Positions 3,001 through 6,000 of a stretch of DNA of 64,000 nucleotides are shown piece after piece. The position numbers are program-made. Location of the stretch: NCBI RefSeq assembly GCF_017348835.2, contig NZ_CP071375.1. One strand, 5' to 3'. The DNA is from Escherichia coli. GTDB lineage: Bacteria; Pseudomonadota; Gammaproteobacteria; Enterobacterales; Enterobacteriaceae. Positions within the stretch are counted from its first letter, which is position 1, and each line of letters starts with the position of its first letter.

Positions 3001-6000
3001 ACAACCCTGCGTTGGCTGAGGCTTTAATTACCAGCCAGAGATTTTCCGGAGATACCACGGATATGTTTCTTATGATGGCATGCCTGTCGCTGTTTGAATC
3101 AGATGAACGGATATTATTATTTTTAAGTGGATGTTTATCCAGTATAAGTGCCAAAGTCAGGGCGATAATTCAGACAGATATATCAGCAAGCTGGACGCTT
3201 GGTGCGATTGCGTTACGCCTGCATATGAGTGAGAGTTTGTTAAAGATAAAACTGAAAAATGAAGGGCACATGTTCAGTCGCTTGTTGCTGGAAGAGCGGA
3301 TGCGTGTTGCTGTGAATATGTTATGTTCCCGGCATGGATATGGACAGGCTGTAGCAGAAAAATGCGGTTATTCAAGCTGGTCCTACTTTATTTCTGTATT
3401 TCACCGCTATTATGGCTTCCCGCCAGACAGATATGTATCCAGGCAAGGGCTTGATTATTGATTTTCATCTGATTATTATTTTTTGACCCGGCCCTTTAGC
3501 TCAGTGGTGAGAGCGAGCGACTCATAATCGCCAGGTCGCTGGTTCAAATCCAGCAAGGGCCACCATCACATACCGCCATTAGCTCATCAGGAAAGAGCGC
3601 CAGCTTTCGAAGCTGGTTGCGCGGAGTTCGGGTCCCCGAAGGCGGTCCATTATCTGTATCCTGCGTTGTTAGCTCAGCCGGACAGAGCAATTGCCTTCTA
3701 AGCAATCGGTCACTGGTTCGAATCCAGTACAACGCGCCACACTTATTTTCCCTGGCTCGCTTTTGCGGGCCTTTTTTTTAAATGTCTCACAATTCAGGCG
3801 GTTGACTGTTGTCTGGTTTGCGGGGAGTTTGTTAAAAGAAACTGGCATGGTGAATCCCCCTGTGCGGAGGGGCAATCAGCGAGTAGGTATATGGGATAAT
3901 CGCGGATTCAGGTGCTGGTACTGAATTCACCGGGAGGCACCCGGCACCATGCAATGGCACATAGCGCCACTCTCCAGCCCCTCTCCGGAGGGGCTTTCTT
4001 ATGGACAAAAAAAGCCCGCGCAGGGAGACGCGGGCGGCAAGGAATAAACAACAAAACGTGAAGTAATATTTCAGCTGGCGAATAATATCCGACAGTAATC
4101 ACTCTGCGCAATAGCGCGGCCTTTTTCGTATTGCGGGCTGTTGTCTCTCTTCTGCCATTGTCCTGTAACTTCCGGACTTCAGCCCGCTCCTCATTTTACT
4201 CACAATATTATCCCGGCCGGGAGGATTCATGGCATTTAAACACTATGATGTTGTCAGGGCGGCGTCGCCGTCAGACCTTGCGGAAAAGCTGACACACAAA
4301 CTGAAAGAGGGCTGGCAGCCGTTTGGTAGTCCGGTGGCCATAACCCCTTATACCCTGATGCAGGCGATTGCAGCAGAAGGTGATGTGGTGGTCAGTGGTG
4401 CAACTGAGCCGGATTGGTACTACGTCATCGTACTGGCCGGGCAGTCCAATGCAATGGCTTACGGTGAAGGGCTTCCGCTTCCGGATTCTTACGATGCTCC
4501 GGATCCGCGCATTAAACAGCTGGCGCGCCGCAGCACGGTAACTCCGGGTGGAGAGAGTTGTACGTATAACGACATCATTCCGGCTGACCACTGCCTGCAT
4601 GATGTGCAGGATATGAGTACGCTGAATCATCCGAAGGCAGACCTGAGCAAAGGGCAGTACGGCTGTGTCGGCCAGGGCTTACATATTGCCAAAAAACTGC
4701 TTCCGTATATCCCGAATAACGCGGGGATCCTGCTGGTACCATGCTGTCGTGGTGGTTCGGCATTTACCCAGGGCGCGGAGGGGACATTCAGTGCGGACAC
4801 GGGGGCCAGCCAGGATTCGGCGCGCTGGGGTGTGGGTAAACCGTTATATCAGGACCTGATTGCGCGCACCAAAGCTGCATTACAGAAGAACCCGAAAAAT
4901 GTGTTGCTGGCGGTGTGCTGGATGCAGGGAGAGTTTGACATGAGCGCCGCCACCCACGCACAGCAACCTGCGCTGTTTACAGCCATGCTGACACAGTTTC
5001 GTGCTGACCTCTCCGTGTTTAACGCGCAGTGCCATGGTGGCAGTGCTGCAGATGTGCCGTGGATTTGTGGTGACACGACGTATTACTGGAAAAATACATA
5101 CGCTACCCAGTACGACACCGTGTACGGCGGGTATAAAAACAGGGAGAGTGAGGGCGTTTATTTTGTGCCCTTCATGACAGACGGTAACGGCGTCAATACC
5201 GCCACTAACGCGCCGGCAGAAGATCCGGATATTCCGGCATCAGGATATTACGGTGCGGCATCGAGAACGAATGGAAACCAGGTATCATCAAACCGCCCGA
5301 CACATTTCAGTTCATGGGCGCGCAGGAGCATTATTCCGGATCGTCTGGCAACCGCTATTCTGAACGCAGCCGGGCGCACCTCAGCCTTCATCAGTGGTAA
5401 GGCACCGGAAATTAAACCCTCGCCCGGCGGCAACACGCCATCGGGTCCGTCTGCAGATACGTCCGTTCGCACAATCTCCCTGCTGCCGGCAGCCGGAGAG
5501 GCTGCTGCGCAGGGCTGGAGCATTAAGGATGGCGGAATTCAGTTGTCAGATGGTGTATTTAAGATCACCAAGCAGAGCAATAAAACCTGGTCCCTGACGC
5601 ATCCGGTGGATGACGCAATTACCCTGCTGACACAGGGCGGCAGACTGACCTGTAAGTTCCGCCTGTCAGGCGCACTGACCAACAATCAGTTCGGGCTGGG
5701 GATTTATCTGTATACGGATGCTCCCGTTCCTGATGGTGTGGCGATGACGGGTACCGGTAATCCGTTCCTGATGTCGTACTTCACTCAGACCACTGACGGC
5801 AGAGTGAATCTGATGCATCACAGGAAAGCCGGAAACACGAAGCTGGGGGAGTTCGGCGATTACGGTAACGACTGGCAGACGCTGGAGCTGGTGTTCACCG
5901 CCGGCAGTGCCACGGTTACTCCGAAACTGAATGGAGTGGCTGGCCCGGCATTCCAGGTTATAAAAGACAGTCTGACACTGGGACTGAATGCGCTGACGCT

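Follow-up and report, generated by a model that had tools for sequence, protein, structure and literature searches.

A probably decaying tRNA-Arg(UCG) gene, argN, between ileZ and argO in the late region of a lambdoid Escherichia coli prophage

Phage 933W and related Shiga toxin (Stx) and lambdoid phages carry three tRNA genes in a fixed order and orientation, separated by short spacers and placed 3' of the gene for the antiterminator Q. In the Stx2 phage record NC_049941.1, these genes are named ileZ, argN and argO, and stx2A and stx2B lie directly downstream. A further arrangement, the late-region Met(CAT)-Lys(UUU)-Thr(UGU)-Gly(UCC) array (e.g., PhiR47_1; phage 21 has the Thr gene), includes members for which counter-defence has been demonstrated, since phage tRNA-Lys(UUU) neutralises PARIS AriB and the tRNA-Thr(UGU) of phage 21 neutralises P2-OLD (PMC12445682). 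Here, we analysed a stretch of 64,000 nucleotides (nt) of Escherichia coli DNA (NCBI RefSeq assembly GCF_017348835.2, contig NZ_CP071375.1; the whole stretch is hereafter called the window). It holds a cluster of three tRNA genes in the late region of a prophage, as the original prediction had it, and the same three genes were called by both ARAGORN and the Rfam tRNA model RF00005. The suggested equivalence with the ileZ-argN-argO cluster of Stx phages also held, homologues being so named in phage GenBank records; the names used here rest on that annotation (NC_049941.1), and a literature search by gene name (ileZ, argN, argO) found nothing in the papers covered. We focus on the middle gene, argN. 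Our analysis suggests that the window argN is probably a partly decayed copy, poorly functional or non-functional, beside intact ileZ and argO. The cluster and the exact argN allele are themselves already known, having been present for years in the genome sequences of EDL933 and other O157 strains, where argN is annotated as tRNA-Arg.

The window cluster shares with the 933W-type clusters the genes, their order, orientation and location, as well as a conserved TTG/TATTAT promoter-like site and a terminator. The surroundings differ, in that the cluster has an STnc100-like small RNA (sRNA) and a SASA esterase gene after it and not stx, and the upstream neighbour is a helix-turn-helix (HTH) protein gene in the window and a methyltransferase gene in the Stx phage cluster. 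While ileZ of 933W is identical to that of the window and argO differs at one base (G37 in 933W), the two argN genes agree at 69 of 77 positions, and their eight differences include three damaging ones. The 933W argN, carried by EDL933 at 1354688-1354764 of NZ_CP008957.1, folds into a zero-defect cloverleaf. The G37-for-A37 form of argO (CTTCTGA loop) is found in the copies of both 933W (L237:24779-24855) and P27 (L014:1679-1755).

In the homologous prophage of EDL933 O157:H7 (1.25-1.29 Mb, NZ_CP008957.1), argN is identical over 77 nt (at 1266833-1266909), with 1 mismatch over window positions 3440-3790, 98.9% identity over window positions 1-6202 and the same flanking genes. That prophage differs in having a lysis region inverted and broken up by insertion sequence elements, and in an ileZ with A1 instead of G1 (L236:26751-26826), which creates an A1xC72 mismatch; the A1 variant also occurs in 4 of the 114 loci of the window-type clade described below. 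The Met-Lys-Thr-Gly arrays begin, like the window cluster, with an ileZ-type gene, and their second gene is a clear argN homologue (acceptor, D and T arms, C1-G72, U73). It differs from argN in its UUU anticodon, in C33 and in an anticodon stem remodelled by two compensatory pair changes, and Thr and Gly tRNAs stand in place of argO. With the tRNA pseudogenes of defective prophages, the window argN has in common stepwise damage at conserved positions beside intact paralogues or orthologues, and passive carriage; it differs from them in being mildly damaged and still annotated as a tRNA by automatic pipelines.

The window argN reads CCGCCAT TA GCTC ATCAGGAAA GAGC G CCAGC TTTCGAA GCTGG TTGCG CGGAG TTCGGGT CCCCG AAGGCGG T CCA. 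All oddities ascribed to it beforehand are present by sequence reading and in the feature table, namely C1-G72, the acceptor mismatch A6xA67, the T-stem mismatch A52xC62 and G58, and cmscan flagged the same two non-standard pairs. Standard pairs are formed at 19 of 21 positions of the cloverleaf (exceptions 6:67, AxA, and 52:62, AxC), and 11 of 12 conserved tertiary bases are kept (U8, A14, G18, G19, A21, U33, G53, U54, U55, C56, A58, C61), only position 58 deviating (G), compared with 12 of 12 in canonical argN alleles. U32 is present in addition to these changes. The predicted TCG anticodon was recovered by ARAGORN (tcg), in a 7-nt loop with U33. Besides the D and anticodon arms, U33 and UCG, the gene retains A20, C35, G36, U73 and the encoded CCA, with A20 invariant across the argN allele alignment; A20, C35 and G36 are identity elements for arginyl-tRNA synthetase (ArgRS). 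ARAGORN scoring called the gene tRNA-Arg(tcg), and the NCBI Prokaryotic Genome Annotation Pipeline (PGAP), whose tRNA calling is based on tRNAscan-SE, gives tRNA-Arg at the same coordinates and not a tRNA of another isotype.

All three genes pass the RF00005 gathering threshold of 29 bits (Table 1), with scores far above chance level over the entire 64-kb window (E-values 6 × 10−14 for ileZ, 9 × 10−6 for argN and 3 × 10−13 for argO). That argN resembles a tRNA by chance, or was called in error by the tRNA finders, has a negligible probability in our view. Among the four tRNAs called in the window it does score lowest, but its E-value, its 69/77 identity to the 933W gene, its conserved place beside ileZ and argO across hundreds of loci and the compensatory base-pair changes in its family all stand against such an origin, and a chance match is refuted by homology and covariation. 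Across 46 alleles, among which the window argN aligns gap-free with the 45 others, compensatory two-sided changes were found at four pairs (7:66, 27:43, 30:40 and 51:63), and 95.3% of cells were paired. None of 500 shuffles matched the observed covariation score, percentage of paired cells or count of double-change cells, the counts of pairs and pair types were never exceeded, and slid controls were only 29-53% paired. Most of these compensatory changes fall between two groups, the Arg(UCG) alleles on one side and, on the other, their homologues of Lys(UUU) and Arg(UCU) type in the same slot of other phages. As judged from these alignments, the argN family is a real tRNA, not a pseudo-tRNA as a whole.

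Within this family, the changes of the window allele can be polarised. Because all canonical UCG alleles and the Lys(UUU)- and Arg(UCU)-type homologues hold G52, A58, U67 and C32, the A52, G58, A67 and U32 of the window are derived states. These derived states favour the "decaying pseudo-tRNA" of the original prediction over its other option, an "unusual functional tRNA". The order of the lesions was likely A58G, followed by G52A (breaking 52:62) and U67A (breaking 6:67), and lastly C32U; A58G is placed first because the closest less-damaged relatives have G58 alone. C1-G72, likewise listed as an oddity, is present but does not qualify as a sign of decay, given that C1 is invariant and G72 occurs in every allele except those of a heavily decayed clade. 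The U73 discriminator is common to the canonical alleles, and both C1-G72 and U73 are therefore traits of the family, not damage.

We surveyed the middle slot in 120 IMG/VR loci found by the ileZ 3' end and in 14 annotated loci, with about 230 related loci overall. Alleles of 77 nt were scored on 21 cloverleaf pairs and 12 conserved bases, and variation is given as allele counts, since indel alleles of ileZ and argO skewed the diversity statistics computed at fixed offsets. The argN slot is far more variable than its neighbours, with 59 distinct alleles in 133 loci, the commonest seen only 13 times, compared with an ileZ identical in 118 of 131 loci and a dominant argO allele in 55 of 111. A canonical class of 18 alleles (50 loci) shows no defects, that is, no stem mismatch and 12 of 12 conserved bases. 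A class with A58 to G as its sole defect comprises 4 alleles (5 loci), and the window-type class, with G58, A6xA67 and A52xC62, comprises 6 alleles (19 loci). In a heavily decayed class (6 alleles, 10 loci), 7-8 defects affect G18 and/or G19, U54, A58 and acceptor pairs 1-2. Two further classes have left the 77-nt form: about 22 loci carry a hairpin with a loop of 3 nt in place of the anticodon arm, and 5 have the arm deleted, and in these loci PGAP makes no call or annotates "tRNA-OTHER".

The replacement hairpin, CGAUAAC-AGG-GUUGUUG (L007:1587-1667, L008:1601-1680 and about 20 more loci), leaves the acceptor arm, the D arm and sometimes the T arm in place. Arm-replaced alleles form the second commonest class of the middle slot, and one is the "tRNA-OTHER" call of an Stx2e prophage. 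In argO, seven IMG/VR loci (alleles ending AAGCAGCTGTGGTTGCACTCC...) end after the anticodon loop and run into unrelated DNA at the same point, a break that looks like a possible insertion or integration junction.

The allele classes differ in their Rfam scores, computed for a subset of alleles: 54.8-58.2 bits for canonical alleles, 47.9 for an allele with G58 and G66 (L095), 42.9-43.4 for the window type, and 22.2 or no hit for heavily decayed alleles, with no hit for arm-replaced ones. The window argN has thus lost about 13 bits of tRNA-model score. Folding by minimum free energy (MFE) was dropped as a decisive test of function, since the MFE structures of ileZ and argO are also non-cloverleaf, and it was replaced by constrained cloverleaf energies in a nearest-neighbour model. 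These amount to -20.0 kcal/mol for the window argN and -28.3 to -31.3 kcal/mol for canonical and G58-only alleles, a loss of 8-11 kcal/mol. The cloverleaf of the window argN lies 9.0 kcal/mol above its MFE, compared with 1.5-5.3 for canonical alleles, 4.5 for ileZ, 1.1 for argO and 8.1 for a heavily decayed allele. In the predicted folds, G58 and A67 jointly permit a rival UUCGG/CCGAA hairpin, and U32 lets the anticodon loop zip up. Starting from a canonical argN, that is, a phage tRNA-Arg(UCG) with a perfect cloverleaf that would read CGA/CGG, the lesions take from the T loop a base that is all but universal and leave two stems weaker. Because of these two effects, we place the window argN at an early-to-middle stage of pseudogenisation, presumably under relaxed selection. 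Any product would probably be poor in folding, maturation or function, and the gene may be passively carried by the prophage.

Segregating variation gives a mixed picture. Sites segregating within the heavily decayed clade number 8 in argN and 0 in ileZ plus argO (p = 0.0006). Resampling of the window-type clade, anchored on its clade-specific spacer and the argO 5' end, yielded 114 loci. The C32 form of argN is found in 42 and the exact window allele (U32) in 37 of these loci; CCA is changed to TCA in 22, G50A, which breaks 50:64, occurs in 5 on two backgrounds, and G10U, which breaks the D stem, occurs in 4. Of the same 114 loci, 101 share one ileZ and 95 one argO, and 16 have a doubly damaged argO (C61A plus an acceptor-stem change). 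Because CCA to TCA, G50A, G10U and the damaged argO all segregate in this clade, damaging variants are tolerated and the whole operon is somewhat eroded in this prophage lineage. In polylysogens such as EDL933, a canonical argN copy elsewhere would relax selection further.

Several observations weigh against a decayed argN. The gene scores above the Rfam threshold and is called tRNA-Arg by ARAGORN and PGAP with no pseudogene flag; its D arm, anticodon arm, U33, UCG, CCA and A20/C35/G36 are intact; and single acceptor- or T-stem mismatches are tolerated in some natural tRNAs. In the first sample of the window-type clade, segregating sites numbered 4/77 in argN and 4/112 in ileZ plus argO (p = 0.72), so that this count does not set argN apart from its neighbours, and enlarging the sample to 114 loci brought no significance either. 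The energy results are support short of proof, because the nearest-neighbour model leaves out tertiary contacts and modifications and the MFE structures of the intact ileZ and argO are likewise non-cloverleaf. A rival reading, which we consider unlikely, is that the window argN is unusual but working, being transcribed, processed, charged by ArgRS and used to decode CGA/CGG, perhaps less efficiently than the canonical form. It draws on the same calls and retained elements (D and anticodon arms, U33, A20, C35, G36, CCA), on the promoter and terminator shared with two intact tRNAs, on an allele that is stable and widespread (at least 99% identity in 558 genomes), and on the fact that, inside the clade, argN is not significantly more variable than ileZ plus argO. 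Against it, the three diagnostic changes are derived and lie at positions never varied by the 18 canonical alleles, the cloverleaf has lost 8-11 kcal/mol and stands 9 kcal/mol above the MFE, the clade tolerates G50A, G10U and CCA to TCA, and sister lineages of the middle slot are plainly dead. Hitch-hiking on a common prophage accounts for the wide distribution.

Expression data from EDL933, which holds both the exact window allele and the canonical 933W allele, bear on the same question. The E. coli chromosome has two Ile2 genes and one argU, and we know of no chromosomal tRNA-Arg(UCG) in E. coli. An AQRNA-seq study of EDL933 from 2026 lists 52 tRNA entries, including four distinct Ile2-CAU and three distinct Arg-UCU species, together with Arg-ACG, Arg-CCG and Arg-CCU, but without Arg-UCG (PMC13185646, Data S5; raw data GEO GSE309283). 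Because the Ile2-CAU and Arg-UCU species outnumber the chromosomal genes, prophage tRNA copies are expressed in EDL933 without induction. The lack of Arg-UCG from this quantification speaks against a working argN, yet as a sign of argN loss it is only suggestive; the canonical 933W argN is likewise missing and the paper describes neither reference set nor filters (PMC13185646), so the absence may be technical.

Codon use was counted per 1000 codons from our own open reading frame (ORF) calls in the prophage and in the chromosomal flank, the annotation of strain E2865 being unsuitable because the window departs from it by indels beyond about 6 kb. ATA (7.7 in the prophage vs. 3.6 in the flank), AGA (4.1 vs. 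1.5), AGG (4.1 vs. 0.75), CGG (14.4 vs. 6.0) and CGA (4.3 vs. 3.6) fit the classical codon-supplementation idea for all three genes. ileZ (AUA) and argO (AGA/AGG) would most likely top up decoders for codons 2-5 times commoner in the prophage than in the neighbouring chromosome. CGG, being 2.4 times commoner in prophage ORFs than in the flank, offers possible work for a functional tRNA-Arg(UCG), and this too counts in favour of a working argN and against its decay. Because ileZ is near-invariant, argO is far less variable and argN decays repeatedly, the CGA/CGG supplement may be the dispensable one of the three. From the identity and synteny of argN, its derived lesions, its losses in score and stability and the parallel decay elsewhere, we infer that the window copy has lost function in part or in full.

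The demonstrated counter-defence role of Met-Lys-Thr-Gly members raises a different explanation, which we assessed in the light of PMC12445682 and PMC12916289. The middle slot might be a fast-turnover cassette driven by conflict with tRNA-cleaving defence nucleases, in which a degenerate RNA, instead of decoding, would distract these nucleases as decoy or competitor or would signal processing by RNase P or RNase E within the operon. Anticodon switches between Arg-UCG, Arg-UCU and Lys-UUU in the same slot, accompanied by compensatory stem changes, agree with it, as does the occurrence of the Lys type in Met-Lys-Thr-Gly arrays. The Lys type always has C33 (L005:1594-1670, L004:1581-1656 and others), next to the site at which the anticodon nuclease PrrC cuts. 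Host tRNA-Arg is among the tRNAs cut by P2-OLD and retron Eco2, and the paired CNG motif known from P2-OLD substrates is also present in argN, whose anticodon stem reads CCAGC/GCUGG, with A37. An anticodon arm that is replaced or lost could fit as well. The Lys type, for its part, has a remodelled anticodon stem without that CNG motif, which together with C33 could reflect adaptation to such nucleases. However, the window lesions lie in the T arm and acceptor stem, whereas the published resistance changes are in the anticodon arm (PMC12445682). The decay series ends in alleles without G18, G19, U54 and U55, or without the whole anticodon arm, which fits loss of function and not diversifying selection. 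E. coli, to our knowledge, also has no tRNA-Arg(UCG) for such an RNA to replace. Because the window lesions are outside the anticodon arm, we keep this explanation as an improbable rival, and partial decay of argN remains our preferred reading.

Signals flanking the cluster are listed in Table 1. Promoter-like matches are frequent in this A+T-rich region (15 observed vs. 8.6 expected), and because they are so common, the candidate upstream of ileZ was weighed by its conservation and not by its scan score. When six loci with otherwise mosaic upstream regions are aligned, neither the TTG nor the TTATTAT block varies in sequence or in distance to ileZ, and the site is probably the promoter of the tRNA operon itself, its activity being predicted from this conservation. 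A "pS tRNA promoter", together with a single-nucleotide polymorphism in "the first tRNA-Arg", is mentioned for the q-stx2 interval of O157 (PMC2858043). Downstream, a terminator-like hairpin closes the tRNA unit. Most phage matches to the cluster reach window position 3777, and the hairpin is therefore included in them.

Table 1 Coordinates of the tRNA cluster, its flanking signals and other features of the window.
Feature	Position	Strand	Evidence
Q antiterminator ORF, 123 aa, intact	785-1156	+	PHROG 79 positions 18-148 of 156
Sigma-70-type promoter-like site, TTGATT-17 nt-TATTAT	3451-3479	+	Consensus scan 9/12; about 10 nt 5' of ileZ
ileZ, tRNA with anticodon CAT, tRNA-Ile per NCBI	3490-3565	+	ARAGORN; Rfam 72.5 bits
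argN, tRNA-Arg(UCG), probably degenerate allele	3573-3649	+	ARAGORN; Rfam 42.9 bits
argO, tRNA-Arg(UCU), AGA/AGG-reading	3663-3739	+	ARAGORN; Rfam 70.1 bits
Intrinsic-terminator-like hairpin, GGCTCGC-TTTT-GCGGGCC then T8	3754-3779	+	Terminator scan: 7 pairs, 6 G-C, loop 4
STnc100 sRNA, full-length	3816-4006	+	Rfam 138 bits vs. threshold 47
tRNA-Ser(tga)	34123-34210	-	
cspA thermoregulator, full-length	53030-53452	+	RF01766, 158.8 bits

The cloverleaves of the two outer genes had both been described as clean. This holds for the TCT gene, argO, in which cmscan found 0 non-standard pairs, and with one small exception for the CAT gene, ileZ, in which cmscan flagged A27xC43 as non-standard; this pair belongs to the commonest ileZ allele (118/131 loci). 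PGAP labels ileZ tRNA-Ile in E2865, EDL933 and many other genomes, whereas ARAGORN is limited to a Met call. The acceptor pairs C4-G69 and C5-G68, which are TilS determinants, are visible in the sequence, and the CAT tRNA has an Ile2-type and not a Met-type body. A tRNA-Ile2 (CAU anticodon) reads AUA once lysidine-modified.

The local gene order is RusA, Q-family antiterminator, CPBP-family protease, HTH protein, the three tRNAs, STnc100-like sRNA, SASA-family esterase, and holin, lysozyme and structural genes. argN lies between ileZ and argO and 3' of Q in a lambdoid late region, and the cluster is located downstream of Q, at the site of stx in Stx phages. The window prophage is a non-stx lambdoid prophage and has no stx genes after the cluster. 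The Q homologue in E2865, otherwise near-identical, is annotated as frameshifted by one base. STnc100 lies directly past the tRNA terminator; at the equivalent site in E2865 and EDL933, NCBI annotates a small pseudo coding sequence on the opposite strand, and related loci hold one to three STnc100 copies, at times beside the anti-sRNA AgvB. The tRNA-Ser(tga) gene marks the right prophage end, where ORFs switch from phage-type to chromosomal, and is probably the attachment site. In the chromosomal part, the cspA thermoregulator match presumably covers the leader and start of a cold-shock gene.

The 351 bases spanning the cluster match 289 phage records, chiefly of Stx2-converting phages, as well as 3060 of 5426 complete E. 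coli genomes. The 97-nt segment of argN with its two spacers occurs at ≥99% identity in 558 complete E. coli genomes, O157:H7 and O145:H28 included, and NCBI labels it tRNA-Arg each time; the window-type clade as a whole is present in about 1000 complete genomes. What our analysis adds is an account of the oddities of this gene, which would identify it as a derived and partly decayed version of a phage tRNA that is canonical in its usual form. Through automatic annotation of this gene, hundreds of E. coli genomes are credited with a functional tRNA-Arg(UCG), although the gene is probably impaired; therefore, analyses of codon adaptation or tRNA pools in Shiga toxin-producing E. coli should not assume CGA/CGG decoding from each annotated copy. 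Across the family, argN decays repeatedly and independently while ileZ is almost frozen and argO far less variable, suggesting that supplementation for AUA and AGA/AGG matters to these phages, and that supplementation for CGA/CGG mostly does not.

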